DNA of 64,000 bases from Oscillospiraceae bacterium (GTDB lineage Bacteria; Bacillota; Clostridia; Oscillospirales; QAMX01), in NCBI GenBank assembly GCA_015067675.1, contig SVMB01000002.1:1315-65314 (forward strand), read 5' to 3'. Position numbers and translations under genes: made by a program. Numbering within the stretch: the stretch's first letter is position 1; each line of letters opens with the position of its first letter. Shown here one piece after another: positions 42,157-61,560 of this stretch. The notes below the pieces were generated by a model that saw nothing but the letters and a program-made list of their open reading frames with translations, searched no databases and was not told where the DNA came from.

Positions 42157-42170
42157 ACAATAACCTCCCG

Positions 42171-42349: not shown

Positions 42350-42389
42350 CCATTATTTTTGATTTTCACGAAATATTTTTTCGCAGGCT

Positions 42390-42413
42390 GTTCTGTTGAA
42401 ATTTCAACAGAAC
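42390..42413. promoter_or_regulatory. perfect 24-bp palindrome GTTCTGTTGAAATTTCAACAGAAC (candidate Crp/Fnr- or Rex-type operator)
   Basis: Read directly. The core TGTTG-N6-CAACA has CRP/FNR-family geometry. Confidence 0.55.
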
Positions 42414-42427
42414 CACTTCAACTTTTG

Positions 42428-42436
42428 TGGTATACT
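42428..42436 (+). promoter_or_regulatory. extended -10 element of the ferredoxin-hcp promoter
   Basis: TGgTATACT. The -35 position (cagaac) is poor and overlaps the palindrome. Confidence 0.45.
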
Positions 42437-42499
42437 GTTTTCGTCAACTTCGGACGCAGGACGTCCGAAAAGCCGAAAAAGATACAGGAGCAAACATAT

Positions 42500-43252: not shown

Positions 43253-43272
43253 TTGTCTGAAGGAGTCTATCC

Positions 43273-44877
43273 ATGGATCGCAAGATGTTTTGTTTTCAGT
43301 GTGAGCAGACCGCAGGCTGCAAAGGCTGCATGGGAATCGCCGGTATCTGCGGCAAAAAGGCCGACATTGCAGGCCTGCAGGATGAACTGACCGGCGTACT
43401 GGTGGGGCTTGCCCGTGCCACCGAGTGCAATGAAAGCCTGATTACGGCCTCCACCGATGATATCGTCATCGACGGTCTCTTCGCTACCATCACCAACGTC
43501 AATTTCGATGCCGACGCACTGAGAGTTCTCATTGAACGTGCCGAGGACGAGAAGAAGAAGTTCGCGCCCGGCTGTTATGCCTGTGCTTCCTCCTGCGGTA
43601 AGACCCGGAACTACGACATGAATGCCCTCTGGAACGCCGATGAGGACATCCGCTCCCTGAAATCGCTGATTCTCTTCGGCATCCGCGGCATTGCCGCCTA
43701 CGCTTATCATGCCGCAGCGCTGGGATACACCGACGGGACCGTCACCCGATTCTTCTATAAGGCGCTCTACGCCATTGGCCGCGACGACTGGGGCATGGAC
43801 GAACTGCTGCCCATCGTCATGGAGGTAGGCAAGGTAAATCTGACCTGCATGGAGCTGCTGGATCGTGCCAACACCGGTACCTACGGTCATCCTGCCCCGG
43901 CAGAGGTGAGCATGACCGTGGAAAAGGGGCCCTTCATCGTCATCTCCGGTCATGATCTGCACGATCTCAAGCTCCTGCTTGACCAGACCGCAGGCCGCGG
44001 CGTCAACATCTACACCCACGGTGAAATGCTGCCCGCTCACGGCTACCCCGAGCTGCGCAGGTATCCCCATCTCAAGGGGAATTTCGGCACAGCCTGGCAG
44101 AATCAGCAGCGTGAGTTTGGTTCTATTCCGGCGCCTGTGCTCTTCACCACCAACTGTCTCATGCCGCCCCGTGCAAGTTATGCCGACCGCGTCTTTACCA
44201 CCGGTGCCGTCGCCTATCCGGAGCTTATCCACATCGGCGATGACCGCGACTTTACCCCGGTTATTGAAAAAGCGCTGGAGCTGGGCGGTTACGCCGAAGA
44301 TCAGCACTTCACCGGCATCAACGGCGGCGATAAGGTCATGACAGGCTTTGGTCACAACACCATCCTCTCCGTTGCCGACCGGGTCATCGAGGCTGTGAAG
44401 TCCGGCGCCATCCGCCACTTCTTCCTTGTCGGCGGCTGCGACGGTGCCCGCCCCGGACGCAGCTATTACACCGATTTCGTCCGTCAGACCCCCTCCGACA
44501 GCGTCATCCTGACCCTCGCCTGCGGCAAGTACCGCTTCAACGACCTGGATCTGGGTACCATCGGCGGCCTACCCCGCATCATGGATATGGGGCAATGCAA
44601 CGACGCCTACGGAGCGATCAAAGTCGCGCTGGCGCTCGCCGAAGCCTTCGGCTGCGGCGTAAACGAGCTGCCGCTGTCTCTGGTTTTGAGCTGGTATGAG
44701 CAGAAGGCCGTCTGCATCCTGCTGACGCTGCTGTATCTGGGCATCAAAAATATCCTTCTCGGACCGTCTCTTCCGGCGTTTGTATCCCCTAACGTCCTGA
44801 ATTTCCTCGTGGAAAACTACGGCATCGCGCCGGTTTCCACGCCCGAAGAGGACCTTGCCCGTCTACTGAACCGATAA
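43273..44877 (+). CDS. hcp: hybrid cluster protein / hydroxylamine reductase
   Basis: N-terminal CFQCEQTAGCKGC and full-length Hcp-like sequence. Confidence 0.9.
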   Translation: MDRKMFCFQCEQTAGCKGCMGIAGICGKKADIAGLQDELTGVLVGLARATECNESLITASTDDIVIDGLFATITNVNFDADALRVLIERAEDEKKKFAPGCYACASSCGKTRNYDMNALWNADEDIRSLKSLILFGIRGIAAYAYHAAALGYTDGTVTRFFYKALYAIGRDDWGMDELLPIVMEVGKVNLTCMELLDRANTGTYGHPAPAEVSMTVEKGPFIVISGHDLHDLKLLLDQTAGRGVNIYTHGEMLPAHGYPELRRYPHLKGNFGTAWQNQQREFGSIPAPVLFTTNCLMPPRASYADRVFTTGAVAYPELIHIGDDRDFTPVIEKALELGGYAEDQHFTGINGGDKVMTGFGHNTILSVADRVIEAVKSGAIRHFFLVGGCDGARPGRSYYTDFVRQTPSDSVILTLACGKYRFNDLDLGTIGGLPRIMDMGQCNDAYGAIKVALALAEAFGCGVNELPLSLVLSWYEQKAVCILLTLLYLGIKNILLGPSLPAFVSPNVLNFLVENYGIAPVSTPEEDLARLLNR

Positions 44878-46202: not shown

Positions 46203-47306
46203 ATGGATTACTTTAAAACCTACGTCTCCAATACCCTTGCCGGTTCCGGCAACCAGCATATCTTCTTCCCCGAGAACCCGGATGCCGTCTACACCGGCCG
46301 CGTCTATTACAAGGTTTTTGCCGGCGGCACCTACAACTACTCCCTGCTCTTCTCCAACATCATTGATTCCACCTACTCAAACGGCGCCGTCAGCCATGCA
46401 AACCTTGTCTGCGATCAGTGGGAGCTTGTATCCGCCTCTCTGGGCGTGGCAAAAGTCTGCTCCGCCACCGTTGCGGAGGATCCCATCGAAGCGTTTCCCC
46501 TCACCTTCGGCGGCAAGACCGCCAAGACCGTCATGCCCGCCGAGTTCTTTACCTCCGATCCGATCAGCATCACCTGCGAAAAAGACGACTACCTCTGCCT
46601 CGAGGTCTCCTACCGCGGTCGGATGATTCCCTATCACGAAGAATCCATCATCCCCTGCTTCATCCGTGAAAACGGCGAATGGGTACGCAGCAAGCATGCA
46701 ATCTTTGCCGGTATGATCGGCTGCGACCGTCCGGTGGCGCTGCGGGTGGGATACCTCGGCGACTCCATCACCCAGGGTATCGGCGTCGCCGTCAACTCCT
46801 ATGATCACTGGAACGCAGTTTTATCCGAGAATCTCGGTACCGATTACGCCTACTGGAATCTCGGCCTCGGCTTCGGCCGCGGTCATGACGCCGCCTCCGA
46901 CGGCGCCTGGCTCTTCAAGGCCCGTCAGGTCGATGTGATCACCGTCTGCTACGGCATCAACGACATCCGTGAGATCCACGATGTGGATATCATCTGCGGC
47001 GATCTGAAATACATCACCGAAACGCTGCAGAAGGCCGGTGTCAAGGTGGTGCTGCAGTCGGTTCCCCCGGCAGACTATACCGGCGAAAAGCTTGATATGT
47101 GGAACGCTATCAATCACCGCATCCGCACAGAGCTTGCCCCCATCGCCGACTACTTCTTCGATGTCATCCCCACCATCAGTCTCGATGCAGACCATCCCCA
47201 GAATACCCCCATCGGCAACTGTCATCCCGATGCGAAGGGCAGCGGCCGCTGGGCTGCGGGGCTCTATCCGCTGATGAAGGACGTCACCGACAAACTCCGC
47301 CGGTAA
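46203..47306 (+). CDS. SGNH/GDSL hydrolase with an N-terminal domain of unknown function
   Basis: GYLGDSITQG (block I) and GINDI (block III). Confidence 0.75.
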   Translation: MDYFKTYVSNTLAGSGNQHIFFPENPDAVYTGRVYYKVFAGGTYNYSLLFSNIIDSTYSNGAVSHANLVCDQWELVSASLGVAKVCSATVAEDPIEAFPLTFGGKTAKTVMPAEFFTSDPISITCEKDDYLCLEVSYRGRMIPYHEESIIPCFIRENGEWVRSKHAIFAGMIGCDRPVALRVGYLGDSITQGIGVAVNSYDHWNAVLSENLGTDYAYWNLGLGFGRGHDAASDGAWLFKARQVDVITVCYGINDIREIHDVDIICGDLKYITETLQKAGVKVVLQSVPPADYTGEKLDMWNAINHRIRTELAPIADYFFDVIPTISLDADHPQNTPIGNCHPDAKGSGRWAAGLYPLMKDVTDKLRR

Positions 47307-47336
47307 CGCATTCCACCTTTGACAGGAGGCGATCTC

Positions 47337-48239
47337 ATGATTATCGACGCCCATGCACATGTTTATGACGTCCTCGCAGGCTACGGCCCCCGGGGAGAAT
47401 TCCGTCCTCTGGGCAAAGGCCGCGGCATCTGGGCCACCGGCGACGTGGAGCAGTTCTTCCCCGCCGAGTACGGCGATCTGGGCTTTCACGCCGAGACGCT
47501 GGTCAGGCTCATGGACGAAGGCGGCATCGACCACGCCGTCTTGCTGCAGGGCGGCAACTACGGCTTTCACAATGACTACACCGCCGAGGCTGCCCGTCGC
47601 TTCCCCACCCGTTTCACCGCTGGTATGACGGTGGATCCCTATGCAAAATATGCGCTGAAGATCCTTGAGCATCTGCACCGCGATTACGGTATGCAGATTC
47701 TGAAATTCGAAGTCTCCGAAACCTGGGGACTGACCGGCTATCACCCGGCTTTACGGCTGGACGGCCCGGAAATGACGCCGCTGCTCTCCTACGCGCAGGA
47801 AAACGACATCGTCGTGGTCTACGACATGGGCCCCATTGGCACGGCAAGCTTTGATCCCGGAGCGCTTTTCCGCCTCAAAGCTGCCTACCCCGAGCTGACC
47901 TTCGTCATGACCCACTGCTTCTTCCCCAGGGAGGACGGCAGCAACGATCAGCGTCTTGCCTGGATGCGGGAGCTTGCCTCCGACCGCTTCTTCTTTGACA
48001 TTGCCAATCTCCCCTTAAAAAACGGCAACTTCACCTTCGTGCGCGGCTTCCTCGCGGAGGCCAAAGCCGCCGTCGGCGCCGATCACCTGATCTGGGGCAC
48101 AGACGTGCCGGGTGTACTCAAGCGTTTCTCCTACCGCGAGCTCACAAGCGTCGTCACCGAATCCAGCGTGTTCACGCCGGAGGAGCTGGCGCTTGTCATG
48201 GGTGAAAATGCCCGGAGGGTGTATCGGATTAAGCTCTGA
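47337..48239 (+). CDS. amidohydrolase-2 family metal-dependent hydrolase
   Basis: MIIDAHAHVY start and TIM-barrel amidohydrolase-like sequence. AGGAGG SD before the ATG at 47337. Confidence 0.75.
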   Translation: MIIDAHAHVYDVLAGYGPRGEFRPLGKGRGIWATGDVEQFFPAEYGDLGFHAETLVRLMDEGGIDHAVLLQGGNYGFHNDYTAEAARRFPTRFTAGMTVDPYAKYALKILEHLHRDYGMQILKFEVSETWGLTGYHPALRLDGPEMTPLLSYAQENDIVVVYDMGPIGTASFDPGALFRLKAAYPELTFVMTHCFFPREDGSNDQRLAWMRELASDRFFFDIANLPLKNGNFTFVRGFLAEAKAAVGADHLIWGTDVPGVLKRFSYRELTSVVTESSVFTPEELALVMGENARRVYRIKL

Positions 48240-48269
48240 GCCCCCCGCACCACAAAAGGAGATCCTCCT

Positions 48270-49874
48270 ATGATACGTACCTGTAACGCTTCCGAACTGG
48301 ACACACTCATTCAGACGACCCCTGACGGCAGCGTATGCCGTCTCGAGCCGAAAGAATATTATCTCACCCGTCGTCTTGAAATTCTCGGCAGGCGGCACCT
48401 CACCATCGACGGAAACGGCGCGACGCTGATCACCCGCTACGAAAATGTCATGCCCGCGGTTGCCTGCACCGACGCCTTCTATCTTGAAAACTGCGACCAC
48501 GTCACGCTGAAGAATCTGACCATCACCACGGACACCCCCATCAACATGACCGCCGTCGTGGAAAGCTATGATGAGACTGCCGGGGCATTCGTCCTGAAAG
48601 TGGACGACTGCTATGCCGTCACAGGCCGGGAAGTACTACTTGCCATGACTTCCTTTGACGCGGAAGGTTCCCCCGACCGGCGCTTTGCAAGCTTTCTCCG
48701 CAATCCCGATCCCACCGCCATCAAGGTTCTGCACAACGAGATCATCTGCTTTGCAAACCATATCGGTCCCCCATACGAGTATCTGGGCGGCAACCGTTTC
48801 CGGATGCGTGTGTCCGATCTGGAATTTGCCTTCCCGCCGCAGATTGCCCCCGGACTGCGGCTGTGCATCCGCCACACGATGTACGGCCCCAGCGTGATCA
48901 CGCTGCGCGACAGCTCCAACACCTGCCTGCAGGACATCACCCTGCCCGCAGTGCCCGGATTCGGCGTGACCGTTCTGACCCGCTGCCACAACCTCACCAT
49001 CGACGGGCTGCGTCTGCCGCTTCTCGACCCTGAGCACACCCTCATGGCCAGCAACTGCGACGGCATCCACATCGTGGGACTGACCGGCAGGCTGATCATG
49101 AAAAACTGCCTCTTCGACGGTCTGGGCGACGATGCGCTCAACGTCCACAGCACCGCCGGTACCGTCACAGCCATCGCCCCGGATCGCCCTGTTTTCAAAT
49201 GCAATTACTGCAAGAAAACCCCGGACGGCGTTTTGCCTGCCCACTGGTGCGCCGAAGGTGATCTGCTGCGCTTCTTTGAACCCGAGACCCAACAGGTCAC
49301 CGCCACCGCCGTGGTCTGTGCATTCGAAGATGGATACGTCACCTATCGTGACCTGCAGGGGGAACCGAGTGTGGGCGATATGGTACAAAACGTCGCCTTT
49401 ACCCCTGCCTGCGAGATTGAAAACTGCGTCGTGCGCAATTCCCGTGCCCGGGGCTTTCTCATCCAGACGGAGAATGTGGAAATCAAAAACTGCTCCTTCT
49501 TCGGCATCGCCGGCAGTCCCATCAAGGCTGCTCCCGCATTTGTCCGCTGGTACGAGGTCGGCCCCTGCAAACACCTCTGCATCCACGACAACGACTTCGA
49601 GAAATGGGGCGAGGGGAATCTCAAAACCCCCGCCGTCGCGGTCTACACCCGCCACAGCGGCAACGACGAGACGATCACCGGTCTGCACCGGGATATCCGC
49701 ATCACCGACAACCGTTTCAGCCGCAAAAGCGGCCTCTGCATCGAGGTTTCCTCGGCGGATCAGGTCGTCGTCACCGGGAATCGTTTTTTCGGCCGCGAGG
49801 ATCCTGCCGCACCGGCGGTTGGAACCATCAGCTGCCGCGACGTGCGGATTGAGGATAACCAGGACGTGCGGTAA
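48270..49874 (+). CDS. right-handed parallel beta-helix repeat protein (pectate-lyase fold)
   Basis: Repeated ~22-25-aa turns with N/D-x-x-I/V-x-N patterns (ENCVVRNS, IKNCSF, IHDNDF, ITDNRF). No signal peptide. Confidence 0.6.
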   Translation: MIRTCNASELDTLIQTTPDGSVCRLEPKEYYLTRRLEILGRRHLTIDGNGATLITRYENVMPAVACTDAFYLENCDHVTLKNLTITTDTPINMTAVVESYDETAGAFVLKVDDCYAVTGREVLLAMTSFDAEGSPDRRFASFLRNPDPTAIKVLHNEIICFANHIGPPYEYLGGNRFRMRVSDLEFAFPPQIAPGLRLCIRHTMYGPSVITLRDSSNTCLQDITLPAVPGFGVTVLTRCHNLTIDGLRLPLLDPEHTLMASNCDGIHIVGLTGRLIMKNCLFDGLGDDALNVHSTAGTVTAIAPDRPVFKCNYCKKTPDGVLPAHWCAEGDLLRFFEPETQQVTATAVVCAFEDGYVTYRDLQGEPSVGDMVQNVAFTPACEIENCVVRNSRARGFLIQTENVEIKNCSFFGIAGSPIKAAPAFVRWYEVGPCKHLCIHDNDFEKWGEGNLKTPAVAVYTRHSGNDETITGLHRDIRITDNRFSRKSGLCIEVSSADQVVVTGNRFFGREDPAAPAVGTISCRDVRIEDNQDVR

Positions 49875-49903
49875 GGTCGCGCAAAGCCTCTTTTGTGAAC
49901 AAG

Positions 49904-49935
49904 AAAAAGCCTCCCCGTTTCGGGGAGGCTTTCTT
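49904..49935. terminator. bidirectional intrinsic terminator
   Basis: aaaaagcctccccg-tttc-ggggaggctttctt. Confidence 0.8.
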
Positions 49936-49942
49936 ACTGCAA

Positions 49943-51073
49943 TCAGATTTCGGGGATGGTGATCTCCACCTCGCGGCCGATGGCGCTGGAGCGCAGGACG
50001 CCGTCGATGATGGCCTGGTTCTTGATGATCTGGCTGGTGGGGACAGGAGCTTCGCCGCCTTCGCGCACGGCGGTGATGAAGGAACCTACCTTGCGGTCCC
50101 AAAGGTCGCCCGCCTTGGGGTCATCCGGGATAATCGGCACAGTCATCTGCATCGACTGACCGGCACACTCGCGGTAGATCGTCATGGGGCCGCCCACGGT
50201 GCCGTTCCAGCAGTTGGTGGAGGGAATGCGCAGACCGGCCTTGGTGCCCAGAATCAGGGTATCTCCGGGCGTGTCCATATTCATGGCCCAGGAGATGCGG
50301 AAGTCCAGGATGATGTCGCCTTCCAGACGGATCAGGGCTCCTGCGAAGTCGTCAACGCTGAACTTGGAGGCAATGTATTCAGGATTCTGGTTCTTGTAGC
50401 GGTAGGTCTCCGGATCCTTGCCGAAGTGGGCATTCTTGAAGCCGGACACGGTCAGCGGCATGGGATAGCCGATGGCGTTGAGCACCATATCCAGCGAATA
50501 GCAGCCGATATCACCCAGAGCGCCCACACCGGCAGTCTCGTCCTCAATAAAGGTGGTCTTGGTATCGCTGGCGGGAATGCCGCGGCGGCGGCCGCCGCCG
50601 GTCTGAATGTAATAGACATCGCCCAGCTCGCCGGATTCCACGATCCGCTTGATCTGCTGCATATTCTGGTCAAAGCGGGGCTGGAAGCCAACGGTCAGGA
50701 TCTTGCCGCTTGCCTTCTCCGCACGCATCATCTCCACGCACTCCTCCAGCGTCACGGCAAAGGGCTTTTCCAGAATGACGTTGACACCGTGATTGAGCGC
50801 ACAGATGGTGGGGGCTGCATGCTGGCGGTTGTAGGTACAGACAGACACGCCGTCGAGCTGTTCCTTCTCCAGCATCTCCTCGTGGGACTCGTAGCAGCGC
50901 ACGCCTTCCACGCCGAACTCTTCAAAGAACTTCTCCGCCTTACCGGGTACGATATCGCAGCCGGCCACGATTTCAATATCATCAAACTTCTCAATGCGGC
51001 GCATATAAGCACCCATATGGGCATGGGCGATGCCGCCGGTACCGATAATACCGATTTTCAGTTTTTCTGCCAT
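49943..51073 (-). CDS. Gfo/Idh/MocA family oxidoreductase
   Basis: KIGIIGTGGIAHAH Rossmann N-terminus. ATG at 51073 has better SD spacing than the one at 51082. Confidence 0.85.
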   Translation of the reverse strand: MAEKLKIGIIGTGGIAHAHMGAYMRRIEKFDDIEIVAGCDIVPGKAEKFFEEFGVEGVRCYESHEEMLEKEQLDGVSVCTYNRQHAAPTICALNHGVNVILEKPFAVTLEECVEMMRAEKASGKILTVGFQPRFDQNMQQIKRIVESGELGDVYYIQTGGGRRRGIPASDTKTTFIEDETAGVGALGDIGCYSLDMVLNAIGYPMPLTVSGFKNAHFGKDPETYRYKNQNPEYIASKFSVDDFAGALIRLEGDIILDFRISWAMNMDTPGDTLILGTKAGLRIPSTNCWNGTVGGPMTIYRECAGQSMQMTVPIIPDDPKAGDLWDRKVGSFITAVREGGEAPVPTSQIIKNQAIIDGVLRSSAIGREVEITIPEI

Positions 51074-51160
51074 AGTATTCATCCGCCTTTTCTGCTAGTA
51101 TTTGGAGTCTTGCTCAAGCAGATTATAGCACAGATACGCTCATCAGACAACGCTTTTTTT

Positions 51161-52513
51161 CTACTTTTTGCCGCGGTCCAGCTCTTCAAACAGCTTCTTG
51201 TAGGGCATCAGCATCCCCTCGTTCATTTTATTCCCCATCTTCGCACGGATTTTCGGCGAGGACATGAGAGCACCCACCAGATACATCTTCGCCACCGTTC
51301 CCTGCTGCTTCTGCGGGAAATCATAATCGCCGTTTTGTTTATAGAACTTATGGTCCGCCTTCATCATGCCGCGCATGATGTAAATCAGGTCGCGGAAGAT
51401 TTTCATGCCGCCGATACCGTAGAAGTTGCGCGGCGGTACCTGCGGATGGGTCAGCGCATACTCAAGCTCGGAGGCCAGCTGATCAATCTCACCGTCGGGA
51501 TCGCGCTCGTCCGTCGCAATGCCCGTCATGACGTTGGCGCCCACCTGTGCCCGGGCTTCGATGACCGTGCGCAGGTTCTCCTCCGCCGAGAGACCGCCGC
51601 TGATGAGGTATCCCACGGGCATACCCACCGTCACCGTGCGGTGACCGTTGCAGAACTGGCGGTCATCGTACATCTTAAACCGTGCACCCATGGAATGATC
51701 CCGGATGGTGAAGGCATAGATCATCGCCTGCGCGGTCTGGATGCTGTTTCGCAGGAATTCGTCAAACCCGTCGGTATAGACGCACTTGCCGTCTGCGGCA
51801 CAGCGAAAGCATCCCAGGCATCCGCCCTTGAAGGGAAACTCCCGGAGGTTTACAACCCGGGTTTTGCGCACGCATCTGGCCTGAAAGCGCGCGATCATGT
51901 CTCTGAGCTGCGCATCCTCGGGCGCGAGATCGGTGATAATCACCACGTCGCCGGGTTTATCCTGTGCAGCAGCGTCCGGCACGGTCACAGGCTGCGGAGT
52001 ATGGGCGCATTCCACGCGGCGCACGGGTTCCGACCAGCCGTTTTTCACACAGAGGCTGAAATGCTGCCAGAAAGCCTCCGCCTGACGGCGGCCCTCAACT
52101 TTGAGCAGGTCATCCATATCCGCCGACAGCCCGCGCACATACCGCAGCCCCAGATCCTCGCAGTTATCCTGCACATACCGATGGGCAGTGACGTCGTAGA
52201 AATGCTTGGAGGTGGTGATCTGGGTGGCAAACTTCCCGCGCAGGTCGATGTGATGCATCTTGACAAGCTCGATGAAGCGGTGGAGCTGGCAGGGCGCGAT
52301 GAAGGTATACACGGGATAGGAAAACAGCAGCACATCCGCTGCACGAAGGAGCGTCTCTGCCTTCGAAAAGTCACGTTCCAGAGCCTTGATCTGCTGTCCG
52401 ACGTGCAGAACGGTGAACTTCTGGTCGGGATACAGTCGGGCAAGGTAGTTGACCGTCTGCAGGGTGATGCTGTATTCGCCCTTGGGGCTTGCGTTGAGCA
52501 CGAGGATATTCAT
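51161..52513 (-). CDS. flavodoxin-like fold NAD(P)H-dependent oxidoreductase, two tandem domains with a Cys cluster
   Basis: MNILVLNASPKG...SYPVY plus a second domain with CLGCFRCAADGKC. Confidence 0.65.
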   Translation of the reverse strand: MNILVLNASPKGEYSITLQTVNYLARLYPDQKFTVLHVGQQIKALERDFSKAETLLRAADVLLFSYPVYTFIAPCQLHRFIELVKMHHIDLRGKFATQITTSKHFYDVTAHRYVQDNCEDLGLRYVRGLSADMDDLLKVEGRRQAEAFWQHFSLCVKNGWSEPVRRVECAHTPQPVTVPDAAAQDKPGDVVIITDLAPEDAQLRDMIARFQARCVRKTRVVNLREFPFKGGCLGCFRCAADGKCVYTDGFDEFLRNSIQTAQAMIYAFTIRDHSMGARFKMYDDRQFCNGHRTVTVGMPVGYLISGGLSAEENLRTVIEARAQVGANVMTGIATDERDPDGEIDQLASELEYALTHPQVPPRNFYGIGGMKIFRDLIYIMRGMMKADHKFYKQNGDYDFPQKQQGTVAKMYLVGALMSSPKIRAKMGNKMNEGMLMPYKKLFEELDRGKK

Positions 52514-52588
52514 GAGGTGTCGCCTCCAATCCGGATGATGCTTCCATTATAGCACAAAAAATGGTAATTGCAAACGTTTGAACATGGG

Positions 52589-53418
52589 CTACAGCGTCCA
52601 GGTTCCGTGACGTTTTCTCAGCGCTGCCGGCGTGATTGCAAATCGTTCCTTGAAAATCTTATTGAAGTGGCTGAAGCTTTGAAATCCCAGTTCCTCGGAA
52701 ATATCCTCTGCCGGTCTGTACGTCAGGATTAACTCATTATAGGCACTGCGCAGACGCTGCTCGTTGATATACTGTTTCAGGCTCATACCGAAGTGCGCTC
52801 TTATGAGCCTGGCCAGATGACTCCGGCTGTAATGCGAAAGCTGCTCAAAGGCCGTGATCCCCAGTCTGAGATTCTCCGTTTTCTTCATCTCATCAATCGC
52901 CTTTGCAAGCTGTCCCGGCAGTTCCCGCGTTTCACTGAGACAGTCGGTATTTTCGATGCAGGAGCGCAGAAACAACGCCAGCAGCAGCTTGCAGTCATAC
53001 TCTGTCACGTTCTGTCGGTCACGGTAATAGTCCTCCGACGGCATCAGTCCGGGTACGGCGGGAAACTGCAGCGGCGCGGCGTATGCCCGGATGCGCTGCA
53101 GCAGCAGAGCGTCGTATATATCACAGATCCGTTCAAATTCCTCCTGTCTGACCGAAAGGGAGATGATCCGCATCTCTTCGGACTGATCCTGAAAGCAATG
53201 CCGGTCTCCGGGACGCAGCAGCGTGACGGTTCCCGATTCACAGATACATTCCTGTTCATTAAGCAGCTGCTTTCCCCAACCGTCCGCAAACCAGATCAGC
53301 TCATAGAAATCATGGGAGTGATACACGTCGGTCAGCTTTCGGTTCCGGATATGCTGAAAGATATATTCTTTTTTCTGGCAATGTTGATTTTGTCAAATGC
53401 GTATTCCACAGCAGTCAT
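52589..53418 (-). pseudogene. AraC family regulator interrupted by a 1-nt frameshift in a 6-nt homopolymer
   Basis: ATG at 53418 (GAGGG SD) opens MTAVEYAFDKINIARKK. After the A6 run (plus-strand T6 at 53369-53374) the AraC frame continues EYIFQHIRNRKLTDVYHSHDFYEL... to 52589. The two frames are offset by 1 nt. Confidence 0.6.
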
Positions 53419-54005: not shown

Positions 54006-56207
54006 TCAAAAGCGCATCAGCACCGCTTCTCCCGCCTGCAGCTTCACCGCATCCACCGTTTCCCCGGTCACCACGTTCACTGCCGTGCCCGGATGCAGAG
54101 ATTCCGCCTTGAGAATCGCAGCCTGATCGGTAAAGTTTGCTGCCAGGCAATATCCATTCCCGTCTCTCGCCGTGACAGTCAGGACGTGTATCCCGTCCAT
54201 CTTCTTACATTCCAGCGATCGGCTCAGCTGTGCGGTCTGATCAGCATCTCCCAACGTCAGCGCAAATCCCACGTTCAGGATTTCCGTGTTTCTGTCGACC
54301 CATTTGTATTCTCTGCAGAACGGCGCACAGACTTCTTCCGCATACAGCGTACCGCTCTTTTCTCTTCGAACGATATCAACCTGCCGCCTGCCCTCTCTGA
54401 CAAGCGTCAGCGGCATATTGGCGGCAATACCGATCTTGTTATCGAAATTCACATAGCTGCCCAGCGCAATGGTCTCAAACCGGCCGGCATAATCGCCGCC
54501 GCGCAGATACCGGCTGCCGTTTTCAAACACGATATGGCGCTGTCTGCCGTTAAAGATGTCGTTGGGCACGTTATAGAAGATGCCCGAGACCTCCGAGATG
54601 AATACGCGGTTGAGCGTCCTGGCATACTGCAGGCAAAGCACGGTATTGTCATCGGGAAGGGCTGCAAACGCAATCTGCTTTCTGGCCATCTCCTCCAGGT
54701 TCTGTCCTTCTGCCATAAAGAGGTCGGAAACCGAGATGGTGGAACCGATTGTCAGGAAGCCTCCGTCAAAGGAGTACACCTTATTTGCTTCTTCCTCGTC
54801 ATAATTGAGTCTGCCGACGCCGACGATCCTCGCGCCCAGATTAAAACGCCATTCCGCCAGCGAGCTGTCGTCCTGCGGCACAAGCAGTCCCTGGGGATTT
54901 TCGGCGGACTTCCATACGAAAGAGGCATAGCGGTTCCCGGTCGCGGAGAAAGCTGCACCGTGGAAGTCGTCCTTCCAGGCAGTGATCTTCTCAGGCTGAC
55001 GGAAGCGCCGCAGGTCAAATTTCTGGTGCCAGTAAAGGCTCATGGAAATCGTATTGGCGCGGTCGCTCTCCAGACGGGTGTAATAAAGAGGCGACAGGTT
55101 TTCAAAGTGACCGAAGCGGTTTGAGAGGAACGAGCCGTCCCCGTTGACCGCTGTTTCCTTCTGCAGGATTTTCAGCCATCCGTCCTCCAGCATGCCGCAG
55201 TCTTCTCCGCAGACGTCCTCGATCAGCGCCCAGGAGGGCAGCGCATAGTCCTGACAATAGCAATATCTGGCACGGGAATCTCCGCCGATGCGCAGGAGTC
55301 TGCCGTCATCAAAGGTAGTCGAGCGGATCAGCTTCCACTGCTCCTTGAGATGGTGGTAGATGATATCGTCCGCCTTCATGCCCCGGGCTTTCAGAGAGAA
55401 ATGGATCATGGCGATATTGGACAGGCAGATATTCAGGTAGCCGATATTCAGATAGCCATGGTGATTCGTGGCGTAGGTTTCAAACATATTCGCACCGACA
55501 AACAGATCGCCGACACGCAGGCCATCCACGATCTCATCGGAATTTTCATCAGACTCAATCGAGATGCCGTTGGCAAAAAACCGTCTTGCCTTGTCAATGT
55601 AGCGCTCCTTGTTCGGCGTATCGGGATAGAGCATGGCTGCGCGGTACAAAATCGCACCGTTCCAGATATTGCTTTCGGGGCGGTTGAGATTGTTATAGCC
55701 GCCCACGGTCTGGCTGACCCTCGCACTGCCGTCCAGACCCGCTACAACCGGGAACTCATGCAGGATATAGTCGCTTTCGGATATCATCACCTTCTTCAAA
55801 AGCGCCTTATCCTCTTCGGTCAGATCCTCCCAGATGGCCTCAATGCCATGAAACATCCGCTCGATGCCCAATACATAGATCCAGTTGTGACCCCACTTCC
55901 CGCCGTCGATACAGACAAAGTCGCCCTCCAGATGGGTACGCAGAGTATAGCGCAGCATGCCCAGCGCCTGCTCCAGCACCTGCTCTCTGGTGATCGGAAG
56001 ATCGGACAGATCCACATTTTCCAGCTTCGCCAGAATGGCAAACGCGGAAAACGCCTTCTGATGGGTATGAACGCCCCAATGACCGTGTTCACCCGCGCCG
56101 TAGCAGATCAGACCCTCTTTTTCCGGGCAGTAATAGAGATGTTTCTGGGAAAACACCACCCAGTTCTTCAGCAACGCAGCATAGCCGTTAAAATCAAACT
56201 CTTTCAT
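54006..56207 (-). CDS. hypothetical protein, possibly (alpha/alpha)-toroid plus beta-sandwich, heparinase II/III or polysaccharide-lyase-like
   Basis: 733-aa cytoplasmic protein with weak resemblance to heparinase II/III-type architecture. GGGAGAAAG SD. Confidence 0.4.
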   Translation of the reverse strand: MKEFDFNGYAALLKNWVVFSQKHLYYCPEKEGLICYGAGEHGHWGVHTHQKAFSAFAILAKLENVDLSDLPITREQVLEQALGMLRYTLRTHLEGDFVCIDGGKWGHNWIYVLGIERMFHGIEAIWEDLTEEDKALLKKVMISESDYILHEFPVVAGLDGSARVSQTVGGYNNLNRPESNIWNGAILYRAAMLYPDTPNKERYIDKARRFFANGISIESDENSDEIVDGLRVGDLFVGANMFETYATNHHGYLNIGYLNICLSNIAMIHFSLKARGMKADDIIYHHLKEQWKLIRSTTFDDGRLLRIGGDSRARYCYCQDYALPSWALIEDVCGEDCGMLEDGWLKILQKETAVNGDGSFLSNRFGHFENLSPLYYTRLESDRANTISMSLYWHQKFDLRRFRQPEKITAWKDDFHGAAFSATGNRYASFVWKSAENPQGLLVPQDDSSLAEWRFNLGARIVGVGRLNYDEEEANKVYSFDGGFLTIGSTISVSDLFMAEGQNLEEMARKQIAFAALPDDNTVLCLQYARTLNRVFISEVSGIFYNVPNDIFNGRQRHIVFENGSRYLRGGDYAGRFETIALGSYVNFDNKIGIAANMPLTLVREGRRQVDIVRREKSGTLYAEEVCAPFCREYKWVDRNTEILNVGFALTLGDADQTAQLSRSLECKKMDGIHVLTVTARDGNGYCLAANFTDQAAILKAESLHPGTAVNVVTGETVDAVKLQAGEAVLMRF

Positions 56208-56329
56208 GATTCTTTCTCCCGTGTATGATGGTTTTTCGGTCCGTTATCCATGGAGGTTTGCGCTTTATTTCATTATAAACAGGACCGGTGAAAAAAGAAA
56301 CCTCATATTCAATGCTAAAGGGGTGATTT

Positions 56330-56370
56330 TCGAAACACAAAGAGAGCACAGCCCCAACAGCTATGCTCTC
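56330..56370 (-). terminator. possible terminator between the glycyl-radical enzyme gene and the downstream gene
   Basis: Minus strand: gagagca-N15-tgctctc followed by tttgtgtttcg. Confidence 0.4.
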
Positions 56371-56439
56371 CCTGATTTTGGTATATTACAAAAAACCTTC
56401 ACAGCAACATGAAACGCCCCTCGGAGGGATACCCCACAC

Positions 56440-58620
56440 TCAGTATTCCGTCCTGTCCATGATCTCCTGCTGAAGCACAGGAGAAAGCCGCGTGTAATAA
56501 TCACTGTAGCCGCCGATGCGAACGATCAGGTCTCTGTGAGCTTCCGGATGGACTCTGGCATCCTCCAGCGTTTCCCGGTCCACCACGTTGACCTGCAGTT
56601 CTATGCCGCCCCGCTCCATAAAGGTGCGGACAAACGCGGTGAGATTCTCCCCTCTTGATCCGTTGAGATTGTCTCTTCCGAATTTCAGGTTCACCACCAT
56701 GCCGCCAAGCAGAGCGCTCTGGTCCCACGAGGTCAGTGAGCAAAGCATCGCCGTCGGGCCGTTTACGTCTCTGCCCTGCACCGCACTGCAGCCGTCGGAA
56801 TAGGAGGTTCCCGCGTGCCGTCCGTCAAAGGTTGCCCCCATCTTTGCACCCATCGTAGCGTGATTGATATAGCTGAATGTTCCGGGCATCATATGATCCC
56901 AGAGCACAGTGTTCTTCCCGAAAATTCCCTGCAGAGACGCCGCAAGCCTTGCCGCCATGGCGTCAGCCATGGGATCAGCGTTTCCGTAATGCGGAAGCTT
57001 GTTGATGATGAACTGACGCAGGGGCTCATTTTCCGCATAATCCCCGGCAACAGTCTCCGCAAACGCCTCAAGCGTGAGCTTTTTCCGGGTATATACCAGT
57101 TCCGAGAGCGCAATCAGCGAATCCACCGCCGTGGCAAAGCCCACGAAAATGGGCTGTTCAAACATATACCGTTCTCCGCCCTCGTAAATGCTCTTGCCGC
57201 GTGCGATACAGTCATCGATCAGCGCGCAGATGCGCATGGCTTCGTTTCCGATGCGGGCGCCCTCCAGAATGCGAACGGCGTAGTTCAGCGCCCTCGTCCC
57301 GACACTTGCTTTTAGTTCTTCCAGATAGCGCTCATAGAGCTCGTCAAAGCTATCAAACGTCTGCTTCCGGGTCAACTGCACCAGGAAACGGGGCAGATCG
57401 ATGGTAAAGGGCGTGGAATGGGCCTTGGATTTGCCGATCACCGAGATCTCCGCGCAGGTGGAGTGAATATAATTCACCGCGTCGGCAGGAGAAACACCGT
57501 AGTGCCGGATCAGGGACTCCGTAATAGCGTCGTCATTGTAAAAGGCAGGATGCGTAGTCCCGTGGGACAAAATCTCCGCGCAGAATGTAAGCAGCTCGCT
57601 GCTTGTTTCCTTATTAACCGCCAGCGCACCGTTGGGATCGGGGAGCTTCAGGTGGTCAAGAGCGTTGAGGAACATATAGGTCAGATCGTTTTCCACAAGC
57701 TTCCCGTTTTCGTCCTTTCCTCCCACGATGAATCCGCAGGCGGCACGTGAAAAGACGCGGTCAGATACATACAGGCAGAAGTTATCGATCAGCTCCTGCG
57801 TAAACTCCTTTGTCAGCGCACCGGTTTGGATATCTTTCTGATAATAGGGATAGAGATAACGATCAGGCCGTCCCAGCGCATAGAGTCCGAATAACGTCGA
57901 GAGGAAAAACTGCACGCTCTGAATGGCCTCATAAAAACTTTCGGCCGGTTCATCGGGAACCTTTTTCAGCATCGTGGCCAGCCGCAGAAGTTCGCTTTTT
58001 CGCGGCTCCGGCTTTTCCTCCGCGAGCCGGAGCGCTTCTTCCGCGTATCGCTTTGCAAGGTCGGAAACGGCATCCAGCTCGATGAGGCAGCACCGGTAAA
58101 ACTCCCACTGCTTAACCGCCTCCATGTCGGGATAGACCCCAGGCGCATTCAGATCCAGTTCCTCAAGCTTTTCCCTGATCTCCGTGCGCAGGCCGTTGAC
58201 TCCTACGCGCAGGAGCTTATCAAAGTCAAGGCAGATATGGTCCTTTCTCGGCGGGCGCTCTATAAGGGTGTGGGCCGACATCCCAAATGCCTCACAGAGC
58301 CGGTCGTATTCCGCCTGCTCCTCTTCGGTATAGTCGGGAAGATACAGGTGCCCCAGCAGAAGCTCGTCATCATAGATCATGGGCTTTGCTTCATACAGCT
58401 CCTCTGCCTCGGCATAAGAGGTGCGCAGCCGTGTCGTCGGGGCGGACGCGTTCTTTTCAAATCCGCGCAGAAAGCCAAGCGTCATCAGCCGGTCTCCCGA
58501 CCGGTAACACTTATATTTTTCAGGATGATACGGATCCTTCATGGCAGGGACCGTCAGACCCATATAGGTCTCTTTCACCCGTTTCATTCTCGCGGTCATC
58601 GCTTCCGCCTGATAGTTCAT
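56440..58620 (-). CDS. glycyl radical enzyme, PFL2/glycerol-dehydratase-like family
   Basis: C-terminal glycyl-radical motif LIVRIGGYSDYYTRLSPVLQQEIMDRT. Cys loop HSTCAEIS (C-x-E). GAGGTG SD before the ATG at 58620. Confidence 0.85.
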   Translation of the reverse strand: MNYQAEAMTARMKRVKETYMGLTVPAMKDPYHPEKYKCYRSGDRLMTLGFLRGFEKNASAPTTRLRTSYAEAEELYEAKPMIYDDELLLGHLYLPDYTEEEQAEYDRLCEAFGMSAHTLIERPPRKDHICLDFDKLLRVGVNGLRTEIREKLEELDLNAPGVYPDMEAVKQWEFYRCCLIELDAVSDLAKRYAEEALRLAEEKPEPRKSELLRLATMLKKVPDEPAESFYEAIQSVQFFLSTLFGLYALGRPDRYLYPYYQKDIQTGALTKEFTQELIDNFCLYVSDRVFSRAACGFIVGGKDENGKLVENDLTYMFLNALDHLKLPDPNGALAVNKETSSELLTFCAEILSHGTTHPAFYNDDAITESLIRHYGVSPADAVNYIHSTCAEISVIGKSKAHSTPFTIDLPRFLVQLTRKQTFDSFDELYERYLEELKASVGTRALNYAVRILEGARIGNEAMRICALIDDCIARGKSIYEGGERYMFEQPIFVGFATAVDSLIALSELVYTRKKLTLEAFAETVAGDYAENEPLRQFIINKLPHYGNADPMADAMAARLAASLQGIFGKNTVLWDHMMPGTFSYINHATMGAKMGATFDGRHAGTSYSDGCSAVQGRDVNGPTAMLCSLTSWDQSALLGGMVVNLKFGRDNLNGSRGENLTAFVRTFMERGGIELQVNVVDRETLEDARVHPEAHRDLIVRIGGYSDYYTRLSPVLQQEIMDRTEY

Positions 58621-58733
58621 AGCGTTCACCTCTTGACAAAGTATGGTTTTATGCCATAATGATAGTTGATGTTTCTTGTAAACAATAGTATACTTTCTCG
58701 AAAACATAAAATATCTGAACCAAGAGGTTAAAA

Positions 58734-59594
58734 ATGAATCATTTCCCGATCCAGAAAACAGTCAGCAAGGATTCCATTCTCAATTTTTCTCATTTCGTCA
58801 TGGATGCTCCGGCAGGAACGTGGAAAAAGGAAAACGTGATTATGTGCGACGGCTTCAAAATCAACGTTTTTGTCGAGGGCAGCTTTTCCGTCTTTTCCGA
58901 CGGAGTCCTCCACCGTCCCACATACGGTGATATCTGCGTCTTGCCGCCTATGAAAATGCACTACGGGCAGATCACCGAACCCATGCACATCAACTATTAC
59001 CAGCTCGACGTGGGTACCAATGCCTTTTCAGCCGTTCCCGACGGTGACCGGCTGATCAGGCGGCTTCTTGAGGTCATGGCGGACAACGATTCCTTCCTGC
59101 GCCCCGACGCCGGAAACCGCGACGCCGTGCTGAAGCTTTGCCGTGAGATCGAGGGAGCAATCCTGAAAGATGAGGTTTTTCTGGCCTACGCCAAAGTCGT
59201 GGAGCTGCTGTCGCTGTTCTCCACGCTCTATCTACGGCCGATGAAGGTTACAGGGGTTGCATATTCCCTGCGTACCGCAGAAACAATCCGGTATATCGAA
59301 GCAAATTATGCCGAAAACATTTCCGTAAAGCAGCTATCCGCCGCGCTGGGCGTCAGCACGTCATTTTTATCCCGCATTTTCAAAAAAGAGATCGGCGTCA
59401 CAATCCACGAATACCTCAACCAGTACAGAATCGCTCAATCGATTCCCCTCCTCAAAAACCACTCCGTGACCGAGGTGGGATTCCTGTGCGGCTTTTGTGA
59501 CAACTCCCACTTTATTTCGGTATTCAAAAGATACATGGGAACCACCCCCATGCAGTATGCAAGACTGCATGACCGTTCCAATTCGTCCCTCTGA
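58734..59594 (+). CDS. AraC family transcriptional regulator
   Basis: Cupin-like N-terminus plus HTH (...GFLCGFCDNSHFISVFKRYMGTTPMQY). Divergent from the GRE gene. Confidence 0.85.
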   Translation: MNHFPIQKTVSKDSILNFSHFVMDAPAGTWKKENVIMCDGFKINVFVEGSFSVFSDGVLHRPTYGDICVLPPMKMHYGQITEPMHINYYQLDVGTNAFSAVPDGDRLIRRLLEVMADNDSFLRPDAGNRDAVLKLCREIEGAILKDEVFLAYAKVVELLSLFSTLYLRPMKVTGVAYSLRTAETIRYIEANYAENISVKQLSAALGVSTSFLSRIFKKEIGVTIHEYLNQYRIAQSIPLLKNHSVTEVGFLCGFCDNSHFISVFKRYMGTTPMQYARLHDRSNSSL

Positions 59595-59686: not shown

Positions 59687-59761
<75 letters not shown>

Positions 59762-59952: not shown

Positions 59953-61560
59953 TTACTTGTTCTCGGCAGCCCAGGCGTCGGCCTGAGTCTGAACCTCGGC
60001 AACGATCTTCTCGGCGCCGTTGGCGTTGAGCTTCTCGTTGAAGGCAGCGATCATCTCGTCGACATTGGGAGTCATACCGAACTTCAGGGTGTCGTGGTAC
60101 TCGGCAACAACACCGGCGACGGCAGCGACTTCGTTCTCAACGGGAGTGGTGTCGGCGACAAAGCCCATGTAGTAGGAAGCGATAGCGTTCTCGTTCATCT
60201 TCTCCAGCTCGGTGAAGAAGGCGCCGTCCAGATCGGTGGGCAGGTAGCAGGTGAACAGGTTGCCCAGCTCAGCATGGTACCAGTAGTAGAAGGGACGATC
60301 GGACTTGTTGGGAACATCGTTCTTGGTACCGGTGAAGTCAGCGCGGGTAACGCCGTCCTGCTCAACAGCATTCCAGTGGGTGCCTTCGACACCGAAACGC
60401 CACATGGTGGAGTAGATCGGATCGGAGAACATCAGGTTCAGAGCCTGCATGGCCTTCTCGGGGTTCTCGGAGTGAGAAGCGATGGCGTTCATGACGGCCT
60501 GGATGTAACCGGTGTAGGTGAAGGAATGGGTGGGATGAATCAGGCCCTGCTCGAAAGCTTCGTACTGGTTGACATTGGGAACGGCCAGACCCCAGGTGAA
60601 GTTACCCAGAGAAGCGCCGGTCTTCTTCAGAGCACCTTCGGGATCGGCATTCTGAGCGTCGAAGGGGAAGATGTTGTCATCGACCCAGCGGGTGATGAGC
60701 TTGATGGCATCGGCATACTCGTTGGTAGCGTAGACGTTGAAGATCTTCTTGCCCTCGGCCAGCTCGCCGTCGTTCTGGAAGGAGCCGTCGATGGCAGCAG
60801 TGGCGATGGAGGTCAGGGTATCAGCGTGGTAGTAGATGTGCATATCCTGACGGTGGGAGATCAGGTAGATATTGGCCCAGTCGGGATACTTGGCATCACG
60901 GAGCTCCTTGGCTTCGTAGAAGATGGCATCCAGGTCACGACCGTAGGTGTAACCGGAGTTGAGAATCTTCTCCTCAACGCCCAGATCCTGAGCCAGAGTC
61001 TTGTTGTAGATGAAGCCCATGTCAACGGACATATCCTTGTAGGTAGGCATGCCGTAGATCTGGCCGGCGACAGTGGCGCCGTCCCAAACGTACTGGGGAA
61101 TGGCTTCGTAGGTCTCAGCGGCATACTCCTTGAGCAGGTCGTTGAGGGGCATGAAGGCACCGGCCTTCTGCCAGGTCAGGAAGCGGAGCTGAGAAGCAGA
61201 GGTGAACACGACGTCCATGGGCTGCTGGGCAGACATGGCGGCAGTGGCCTTCTGATCGTAGTCAGCATTGGAGAAGTTGTGCCACTCGACGGTAGCATTG
61301 ATGTCCTCGAGGAACTTCTCGTTGTAAGCTTCCTCGACGAGAGGCCAGTCCTTATCGCCATCCTGGCGGGCATACCAGTGCAGGACGACGGTCTCCTCAG
61401 AGGGAGCAGCGGTGGTGGCAGCAGCGGTGGTGGTGTTGTCGCCGGCGGCAGCGGTGGTCGCAGCGGCGGTGGTGGTCTGAGACTGGTCGCCGCCGCAGCC
61501 GGTCAGAACCAGCGCGAGGACCATCATCAGAGCCAGGGACATTGCAAGGATCTTCTTCAT
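59953..61560 (-). CDS. extracellular solute-binding lipoprotein (ABC transporter, family 1, large oligosaccharide type)
   Basis: Lipobox LVLTGC and a Thr/Ala-rich linker. AGGAGG SD before the ATG at 61560. No permease or ATPase genes adjacent. Confidence 0.85.
   Translation of the reverse strand: MKKILAMSLALMMVLALVLTGCGGDQSQTTTAAATTAAAGDNTTTAAATTAAPSEETVVLHWYARQDGDKDWPLVEEAYNEKFLEDINATVEWHNFSNADYDQKATAAMSAQQPMDVVFTSASQLRFLTWQKAGAFMPLNDLLKEYAAETYEAIPQYVWDGATVAGQIYGMPTYKDMSVDMGFIYNKTLAQDLGVEEKILNSGYTYGRDLDAIFYEAKELRDAKYPDWANIYLISHRQDMHIYYHADTLTSIATAAIDGSFQNDGELAEGKKIFNVYATNEYADAIKLITRWVDDNIFPFDAQNADPEGALKKTGASLGNFTWGLAVPNVNQYEAFEQGLIHPTHSFTYTGYIQAVMNAIASHSENPEKAMQALNLMFSDPIYSTMWRFGVEGTHWNAVEQDGVTRADFTGTKNDVPNKSDRPFYYWYHAELGNLFTCYLPTDLDGAFFTELEKMNENAIASYYMGFVADTTPVENEVAAVAGVVAEYHDTLKFGMTPNVDEMIAAFNEKLNANGAEKIVAEVQTQADAWAAENK

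Follow-up and report, generated by a model that had tools for sequence, protein, structure and literature searches.

A metagenome-assembled genome (MAG) of an Oscillospiraceae bacterium carries, on contig SVMB01000002.1, a gene for a putative glycyl radical enzyme (GRE) with no gene for an activating enzyme (AE) nearby. The locus raises the question of which kind of GRE this is, whether it is maintained and activated without a local AE, and what reaction it might catalyse. The 64,000-nucleotide stretch that was analysed (positions 1,315 to 65,314 of the 95,556-bp contig) is referred to here as the window. Judged from its sequence, the gene very probably encodes an active GRE of a new clade, and it groups as a core member of a monophyletic set of 'short GREs' of ~700-740 amino acids.

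Gene structure and catalytic residues

The gene and its predicted functional sites lie at the following window positions.

56440-58620, minus strand: coding sequence of the GRE, a member of the core of the short-GRE clade; 726 amino acids plus stop (727 codons), from Pfam, ribosome-binding site and homologue lengths
56494-56523, minus strand: glycine loop VRIGGYSDYY, residues 700-709, aligned to RVAGYS of glycerol dehydratase (GDH), 1,2-propanediol dehydratase (PD), CutC, YbiW and PflD
57442-57465, minus strand: cysteine loop HSTCAEIS, aligned to GCVEPQ of GDH (Cys433/Glu435)
57718-57747, minus strand: RAACGFIVGG, site of a 12-residue deletion relative to canonical GREs, from alignments
58237-58239, minus strand: His128, in DHICLD, aligned to His164 of GDH (GHVSVD); proposed general acid for the leaving group

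Translation starts at an ATG (58620) that follows a GAGGTG ribosome-binding site at a distance of 7 nt, and homologues of the protein are 725-728 amino acids long. The coordinates of the open reading frame (ORF) are those of the initial annotation, whose length of 727 amino acids had counted the stop. In the public annotation of the source MAG the same GRE appears as a 755-amino acid 'hypothetical protein' (MBE6928798.1, window 56440-58707, minus strand). The upstream ATG of that call is supported by no homologue, and the ribosome-binding site, the homologue lengths and the JGI gene call all favour 58620. The NCBI ORF is probably too long.

Both the PFL-like catalytic domain and the C-terminal glycine-radical domain of the GRE superfamily (IPR004184) are present (Pfam PF02901, 1.7e-96, and PF01228, 7.4e-24). 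The predicted radical residue, Gly704, is encoded at 56509-56511, and a HMMER alignment puts VRIGG704YSDYY on VRVAGYSAQF of GDH. The superfamily fingerprint near the C-terminus is RVxG[FWY] (PMC11528403); the window version, RIGGY (residues 701-705, with Ile for Val and Gly at x), is a conservative variant that is invariant across the clade. Aminoacyl radical enzymes (AAREs) are defined by Ala, Ser or Thr in place of the radical Gly (PMC11528403), whereas Gly704 is kept in 60 of 60 aligned clade members. The predicted thiyl-radical residue Cys389 (57454-57456) and the predicted general base Glu391 (57448-57450) form a Cys-x-Glu pair that is invariant in all 58 sequences of the family alignment. 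The His128 equivalent is also invariant in these 58 sequences, and is found in at least 90% of aligned core, wider-clade and canonical GREs. The HSTCAEIS loop has a single Cys, and the adjacent Cys-Cys pair of PFL-type enzymes is absent. Both the glycyl radical fingerprint and the STCAEIS loop had been recognised in the initial annotation and are intact in alignments to solved GREs, with no loss of Gly or Cys.

An AlphaFold (AF2) model built on 58 family sequences has a pLDDT of 89.6 and a pTM of 0.91, and superposes on every solved PFL-like GRE with TM 0.81-0.88. GREs have a conserved mid-protein Cys on a loop that meets the glycine loop within a barrel of 10 strands; Cys389 matches this Cys in the alignment, and the barrel fold is that predicted by the model.

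A clade of short GREs

The core relatives of the window GRE form more than 120 clusters at 90% identity. They are 56-94% identical, all of ~726 amino acids, and derive from Clostridia/Oscillospiraceae MAGs and from gut, rumen and digester metagenomes. In databases they are labelled 'hypothetical' or 'formate C-acetyltransferase'. A profile search of 1.84 billion representatives places the whole core family in one 50%-identity cluster (1233 bits). It also returns ~40-50 further clusters at ~740-410 bits, mostly of 690-740 amino acids (judged from bit scores and lengths), and canonical GREs of 780-850 amino acids start at ~400 bits. Canonical GREs picked up by a scan of genome contigs with peptide patterns from the single protein served as the outgroup; the same scan gave three close relatives only, the patterns being too specific. 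A neighbour-joining tree built from 87 sequences separates the 60 short GREs, as one monophyletic group, from 27 canonical GREs (E. coli YbiW and PflD among them), and the 19 core sequences are monophyletic inside the short clade.

The best NCBIfam match of the window GRE, over residues 127-726, is the umbrella model TIGR01774 (PFL2-3, the formate C-acetyltransferase/glycerol dehydratase family), with 351.5 bits against a cut-off of 678.2. Since the window GRE and a wider-clade member (378 bits) both fall below this cut-off, and canonical GREs score 575-915 bits, the short clade is placed outside the TIGR01774 subfamily. More specific models are also far below their cut-offs. These include the sulfonate GREs HpsG, HpfG and IslA (NF048011 and NF048009, 302.5 and 286.7 bits against 1000; HpsG, 302 bits), the trans-4-hydroxy-L-proline dehydratase HypD (NF043068, 292.3 against 1100), the choline TMA-lyase CutC (TIGR04394, 272.6 against 1050), the E. 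coli PflD-like formate C-acetyltransferase model (NF007437, 260.6 against 1109), indoleacetate decarboxylase (251 against 1100) and pyruvate formate-lyase (PFL; TIGR01255, 76.5 against 994). Identity to solved eliminases and isomerases is flat at 23-26%, and no characterised enzyme is closer than the others. By scores, identity and tree alike the window GRE belongs to no characterised GRE subfamily, in agreement with the initial annotation, which had assigned it to none. A literature search found no paper on the short-GRE clade, and no characterised GRE of a 2026 review (PMC13450708) falls in it.

The clade carries a distinct signature. All 60 aligned short GREs share the glycine loop VRIGGYSDYF, where canonical GREs have VRVAGY[ST]A.F, and the cysteine loop of the clade is H-S-T-C-[AV]-E-I-[ST], where canonical GREs have I-[IV]-G-C-V-E. 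Members are ~60-120 residues shorter than characterised Cys-x-Glu GREs; this is due to a divergent N-terminal region of 127 residues and to internal loop losses, with no domain lost. The 12-residue deletion, located before the IVGG strand, takes out the G-Y-x-x-[FY]-Q-N loop, which we take to carry an active-site aromatic residue in GDH (Tyr339), PD, CutC and HypD. A second, shorter deletion in the core replaces the E-S-N-G-H-S-x-S-P-G-R loop by the hydrophobic F-G-L-Y-P-L-G-R. At the W-H-D position of diol dehydratases (Asp447) the family consensus is H-T-T and the window has H-S-T, with Thr at the Asp447 position, which resembles CutC (W-T-S) and HpyG (Y-T-S). An inward-facing strand reads P-G-T-F-S-Y-I-N-H-A in the core family and P-S-L-F-C-W-I-M-H-E in the wider clade, a difference that suggests different substrates with one chemistry.

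Gene neighbourhoods were compared for 21 non-redundant core genes and 44 wider-clade genes from genomes and metagenomes (loci labelled L001 and so on). Two of these loci hold further, more divergent GREs of 740-748 amino acids (L001, 13154-15376, plus strand; L085, 19231-21477, minus strand), each with its own AraC regulator. These are matched by no NCBIfam GRE model at E <= 1e-100 and score ~220 bits on the hidden Markov model (HMM) of the short clade. The Clostridia of L001 and L085 carry several uncharacterised GRE types.

The missing activating enzyme

A GRE depends on a cognate radical-SAM AE, which most often is encoded close by; as the initial annotation had reported, the window lacks one. 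Across the 64 kb, neither an AE nor an AE remnant was found: tblastn with five family AEs gave ferredoxin-motif matches only, and the only ORFs with a CxxxCxxC radical-SAM motif are those at 39340-40797 and 40851-41906, together with a truncated HemW at the window end. The first two were initially named hydG and hydE; the domains (Radical_SAM plus BATS in the former, Radical_SAM in the latter) are confirmed, the names are not. They are adjoined by a ferredoxin-domain protein (42302-43252) and a hybrid-cluster/Prismane protein (43273-44877), both identified by Pfam. The region 39340-44877 resembles a neighbourhood of anaerobic redox enzymes with no relation to GRE activation.

The absence of an AE does not hold as a trait of the enzyme family. 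An AE lies within 1.5 kb of the GRE in 13 of the 20 non-redundant core loci with usable flanks, including those of the closest relatives. The closest genome relative, L006 (80% identity), has its AE 2 bp beyond the stop codon of the GRE, and in L007 (72% identity) the gene order is GRE-SDR-AE. Seven of the 20 core loci, the window among them, have no AE within the available flank, which is ~10 kb for L004, L001, L176 and L178 and no more than ~2 kb on the downstream side for L088 and L103. Copies without an AE of their own coexist with AE-bearing paralogues. Two short GREs share one AE in L087 (4629-6809 and 10001-12181; paralogues 1.5 kb apart), in L092 (in tandem, 1024-3207 and 3779-5962) and in L108.

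Scores on the AE HMM are 380-530 bits for AEs linked to core GREs, 280-365 bits for those of the wider clade and 190-290 bits for AEs of canonical GREs. This gradient points to a dedicated AE lineage that tracks the GRE clade and apparently co-evolves with it. AE specificity has been reported to depend on the sequence of the glycine loop (PMC13450708, section 2.5). Since all clade members have the same loop, the AE-less loci are most simply accounted for by a single AE that serves several paralogues in trans. The missing AE is peculiar to the window locus and would be explained by paralogy, and the AE-less GRE is probably activated in trans by an AE encoded elsewhere in the genome.

The AE-less copy is alive by all the tests applied. 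For the window GRE against its relatives pN is 0.13-0.18 and pS 0.67-0.75, and dN/dS is 0.02-0.10 where dS is finite, though dS is saturated. The comparison with L004, where neither gene has an AE, gives pN 0.13 and pS 0.75 (pN/pS ~0.17). Identical copies of the protein occur in further metagenome assemblies. The catalytic residues are intact, and the gene is under strong purifying selection.

AraC regulator, control region and conserved partners

The divergently transcribed AraC neighbour of the initial annotation is present and is separated from the GRE gene by a short intergenic region.

58621-58733, no strand assigned: divergent control region of 113 bp, from a promoter scan
58734-59594, plus strand: AraC-family regulator, divergent to the GRE (HTH_AraC, HTH_18)

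AraC orthologues with 41-68% identity occupy the same divergent position in L001, L004, L006, L007 and L087. AraC-family genes are also found divergently upstream in L085, L086, L176 and L178, and in at least 13 core loci overall (gene calls, phmmer). Between the window and its closest relatives the AraC-GRE pair alone is syntenic. The AraC regulator is a conserved partner of the GRE.

The control region contains a predicted promoter, TTGACA-16-CATAAT, at 58633-58660 (plus strand) directed toward araC, with 11 of 12 consensus matches. The -35 element of this promoter falls in the stretch directly preceding the ribosome-binding site of the GRE, and the araC promoter overlaps the 5' leader of the GRE. 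TGTCAA (the -35 TTGACA on the other strand) and TATAAT-like blocks are kept in 10 of 10 orthologous intergenic regions (window, L001, L004, L006, L007, L085-L087, L176 and L178), with the TATAAT(TATA) block ~20 nt from TGTCAA. We infer from these motifs that the region would function as a promoter.

The conserved partners of short GREs are AraC, the AE (13 of 20 loci) and sometimes an SDR reductase, and no others. The GRE-SDR-AE arrangement occurs in three core loci (L007, L087 and L102), and an SDR lies near the GRE in eight wider-clade loci. The co-operonic SDRs have only generic NCBIfam SDR matches, below cut-offs, and give no substrate clue. The most elaborate arrangement is the 12-kb operon of L108 in the wider clade (964-13087, plus strand), which reads GFO, NAD-epimerase, GRE, AE, SDR, URO-D-like, NAD-epimerase, GRE, GFO. 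The two short GREs of this operon are 685 and 710 amino acids long and stand with one AE and five sugar-type oxidoreductases; its URO-D gene is URO-D/MtaA-like.

Comparison with characterised GREs

The best matches of the window GRE among solved structures are the B12-independent enzymes GDH (C. butyricum, 1R8W/1R9D) and PD (R. inulinivorans, 5I2A/5I2G), with E 1e-78 to 1e-80 and TM 0.86-0.88. Common to all three are the barrel fold, the position of the glycine loop, Cys-x-Glu and the His164/His166 equivalent. However, the window GRE is only 25-26% identical to GDH and PD, and it is shorter by 60-115 residues. Thr stands in for Asp447 and Leu for Ser282, the latter in a shortened hydrophobic loop, and the Tyr339/Phe loop is deleted; together with His164, we take these to be active-site residues of GDH and PD. 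The glycine loop also differs (RIGGYSD compared with RVAGYSA), and the window family has no microcompartment or diol-pathway context.

CutC and the hydroxyproline dehydratases (HypD, HpyG and HpzG) are Cys-x-Glu eliminases with a fold similar to that of the window GRE (TM 0.87). At Cys+13, CutC (Thr502) and HpyG have Thr; the family consensus has Thr at +13/+14, and the window has Ser at +13 and Thr at +14. Unlike CutC and HypD, the window family has no amine, choline or proline pathway genes nearby and no microcompartment.

YbiW and PflD open the rings of 1,5-anhydroglucitol-6-P and 1,5-anhydromannitol-6-P, with a Cys-x-Glu pair whose Glu acts on the C2-OH and C-O cleavage via a ketyl (PMC13450708). 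By analogy, they are the best mechanistic model for a sugar substrate. The window family differs from them in identity (27-29%), in its other active-site loops, and in having AraC, SDR and GFO partners instead of PTS and aldolase.

Proposed reaction and alternatives

GREs of the Cys-x-Glu type that have been characterised act as 1,2-eliminases or isomerases, and their Glu binds a hydroxyl of the substrate (PMC13450708, sections 5.6 and 5.7). The initial annotation had read Cys-x-Glu as a mark of the dehydratase/lyase branch rather than PFL. The distinction from PFL holds, given the single Cys, but the mark is not exclusive, as GRE isomerases carry Cys-x-Glu too (PMC13450708). By analogy with these enzymes, C-O elimination or isomerisation on a carbohydrate-derived substrate seems rather likely for the window GRE. 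The loop losses are compatible with a bulkier polyol or sugar, and the lack of kinase and PTS genes, together with the AraC, SDR and GFO partners, suggests a non-phosphorylated substrate. The reading favoured here, with moderate confidence, is a trans-activated, AraC-controlled radical C-O eliminase or isomerase that acts on a carbohydrate-derived substrate and gives a carbonyl product.

In such a scheme, a radical-SAM AE encoded elsewhere, probably beside a paralogue, would recognise the VRIGGYSDYF loop and install the radical on Gly704, from which it would pass to Cys389 to give a thiyl. The Cys389 thiyl would abstract H from a carbinol carbon of a cytoplasmic carbohydrate-derived substrate, and Glu391 would deprotonate the hydroxyl to yield a ketyl radical. 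The neighbouring C-O group (water, ring oxygen or alkoxy oxygen) would then leave, possibly with His128 as acid, and the resulting alpha-keto radical would regain H from Cys389 to give the carbonyl product. In relatives, the co-operonic SDR or GFO-type oxidoreductase may reduce this product. The divergent AraC would control expression, presumably by sensing the substrate or a glycan precursor. The data show the domain content, catalytic residues, fold, clade membership, partner genes and purifying selection; from these we infer the radical chemistry, substrate class, trans-activation and regulation of the scheme.

Several points weigh against this reading. The active site is unlike that of all known eliminases (Thr at the Asp447 position, a hydrophobic stretch for the H-S-x-S loop, and a loop deletion), and the chemistry could for this reason differ from elimination. 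The arylacetate decarboxylase HPAD also has Cys-x-Glu, which we take to be Cys503/Glu505. The term 'carbohydrate-derived' is guilt by association, and the neighbours vary. Lastly, no AE was found for this genome, either in the 64-kb window or in a search with the L006 AE, in which none of 3,497 matches could be tied to the source MAG by locus tag or name.

A different GRE reaction type, whether decarboxylation, C-C, C-N or C-S cleavage or a chemistry new to the superfamily, is unlikely but has some points in its favour. Known eliminases belong to the TIGR01774 subfamily and the clade does not, its active-site strands are family-specific (PGTFSYINHA in the core, PSLFCWIMHE in the wider clade), sulfatase and URO-D-like (methyltransferase-like) genes occur in some loci, and whole GRE clades are without known function (PMC13450708, section 7). 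Conversely, Glu at Cys+2 and His128 are retained as in eliminases and isomerases, the recurrent SDR and GFO partners fit a carbonyl product, no small subunits of the kind seen with HPAD and BSS adjoin the gene, and no sulfite reductase or amine-handling genes are nearby. A B12-independent small-diol dehydratase of the GDH/PD kind, acting on glycerol, propanediol or ethylene glycol from fucose, rhamnose or glycan fermentation, is a decidedly weaker candidate. By sequence, no solved structures are closer than those of PD (5i2a) and GDH (1r8w). The enzyme also retains Cys-x-Glu and the His164 equivalent, and L001 and L003 have genes for fucose isomerase, aldolase and kinase within a few kb. However, glycerol and propanediol are argued against because two active-site loops and the diol-clamping Asp and Ser are lost: W-H-D has become H-[ST]-T, the H-S-I-S loop with Ser282 has become L-Y-P-L, and the Tyr339/Phe loop is deleted. 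The TIGR01774 score (351 bits against 678) is also far from the values of at least 820 bits reached by PD-like GREs, the 25-26% identity to PD and GDH is no higher than that to CutC, HypD or YbiW, and the annotated loci contain no microcompartment, aldehyde dehydrogenase or 1,3-propanediol dehydrogenase genes.

It is very unlikely that the window gene is an orphan beyond activation, a relic that is decaying or non-catalytic and whose AE was lost when the gene of the neighbouring 733-amino acid protein took its place. This would account for the lack of an AE or remnant in 64 kb and for the L006 AE occupying the position of the 733-amino acid protein gene. Against it stand the intact ORF with all catalytic residues, the low pN/pS (~0.17) and dN/dS (<=0.1), including against the AE-less L004, the identical protein copies in further metagenome assemblies, and the conservation of regulator and promoter. 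In addition, no cis AE is found in seven of 20 related loci, and where a locus has several paralogues one AE is shared among them. The chances are slighter still that the enzyme is an anhydro-sugar-phosphate ring-opening isomerase of the YbiW/PflD type (anhydroglycolysis), to which the sugar context and Cys-x-Glu would point, these being the only characterised sugar-acting GREs (PMC13450708, section 5.7). Identity to the E. coli proteins is 27-29%, NF007437 reaches only 261 of 1109 bits, the YbiW insertion (RYGRGPVGG) and the S-P-L-Y-Q-N loop are missing, and genes for a PTS, a kinase or an FsaA-type aldolase are not found next to members of the family, in contrast to the E. coli loci.

Starting from the favoured C-O eliminase or isomerase, a bolder and doubtful extension is that the short clade cleaves C-O bonds radically and directly on neutral sugars, cyclitols or glycosides. 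A pyranoside, for example, could lose H from C2 or C3 and, by way of Glu391, form a ketyl radical, after which the anomeric or a neighbouring oxygen substituent would leave by beta-elimination. The keto product of such a 'radical glycoside lyase or sugar deoxygenase' would then be reduced by SDR or GFO.

Neighbouring genes in the window

The remaining neighbours include the following.

49943-51082, minus strand: GFO/IDH/MocA sugar oxidoreductase (Pfam), member of a neighbour cluster found in five loci including the window
54006-56207, minus strand: 733-amino acid cytoplasmic protein, 232 bp downstream of the GRE on the same strand
59687-59761: tRNA-Cys, between the AraC gene and the lipoprotein
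59953-61560, minus strand: orphan solute-binding lipoprotein (SBP_bac_8 and DUF3502, lipobox LTGC), with no adjacent permease genes

The 733-amino acid protein, the tRNA-Cys and the lipoprotein without permeases are all found as initially listed. Neighbours were identified by HMM or clustering, as ORF length is misleading in DNA of 55-59% GC with antisense shadow ORFs. One such ORF, of 885 amino acids (49895-52552, plus strand), overlaps real genes, and conserved shadow ORFs within the GRE formed clusters of their own.

The 733-amino acid protein has no Pfam, NCBIfam or PDB sequence match, more than 900 homologues and no signal peptide. Its AF2 model (pLDDT 94.2) shows an (alpha/alpha)-toroid at residues 1-400 and a beta-sandwich at 400-733, and the best Foldseek matches are PL8 hyaluronate lyases, PL17 Alg17c, PL15 alginate lyase and PL12 heparinase III (E 1e-11 to 1e-7, TM 0.4-0.49, 10-12% identity). 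The toroid or lyase-like fold that had been guessed from the sequence is borne out by the model and these matches. The family has an invariant N240-H249-H250-Y252-N254-Y257 block, whose likeness to the Asn/His/Tyr sets of lyases does not establish equivalence. The protein is a plausible candidate for a new cytoplasmic lyase-like family.

The gene for this protein is absent from all other GRE loci examined. It and the binding lipoprotein, both listed as neighbours in the initial annotation, stand beside the GRE in this strain only; it is AraC that is conserved instead. As GRE partners, the 733-amino acid protein, the lipoprotein and the flavodoxin-like protein described below were rejected, none being conserved beside the GRE.

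Beyond the 733-amino acid protein gene, the stretch 49943-53326 (minus strand) holds the GFO/IDH/MocA gene, a 450-amino acid flavodoxin/FMN-reductase-like protein and a second AraC. At 46203-49874 there are a GDSL esterase, an amidohydrolase and a beta-helix (GH28-like) protein. This part of the window is a mosaic of small AraC-controlled carbohydrate modules. Elsewhere, L003 has an operon of GH36-like, GRE, AE and GH3 genes, and fucose isomerase, aldolase and kinase genes occur a few kb from the GRE in L001 and L003. Variable neighbours in other loci are GH2, GH3, GH28, GH36, GH38, GH39, GH123, GDSL esterase, sulfatase with its maturase, and sugar ABC transporters. The great majority of these are carbohydrate-active, and many have their own AraC regulator. 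Kinase, PTS, aldolase, microcompartment and small-subunit genes accompanying the family were not found in the annotated loci. The survey supports the carbohydrate-type surroundings described in the initial annotation.

Implications

GREs carry out chemically hard anaerobic reactions that strongly affect gut ecosystems, such as the formation of trimethylamine, p-cresol and H2S and the use of hydroxyproline. The 2026 review stresses that whole GRE clades are without function (PMC13450708), and the short clade is a large, structurally distinct example. What is new here is a distinct clade signature and context, inside a well-known superfamily where unannotated clades are expected. The signature (VRIGGYSDYF, HSTC[AV]E and the loop deletions) provides a simple annotation handle for genes labelled 'hypothetical' or 'formate C-acetyltransferase', and the L108 operon, with two GREs and one AE, is a good system for the pathway of the clade.

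The oxidative 3-keto-glycoside elimination pathway uses GFO dehydrogenases. The radical route on glycosides, if true, would be an oxygen- and NAD-independent counterpart of that pathway, a new GRE reaction class and a new way for gut and rumen Clostridia to break down glycans anaerobically. Among known GREs, just YbiW and PflD act on sugars, and both need phosphorylated anhydro-sugars (PMC13450708). A GRE acting on non-phosphorylated, glycan-derived substrates, if true, would extend radical chemistry to mainstream polysaccharide fermentation.

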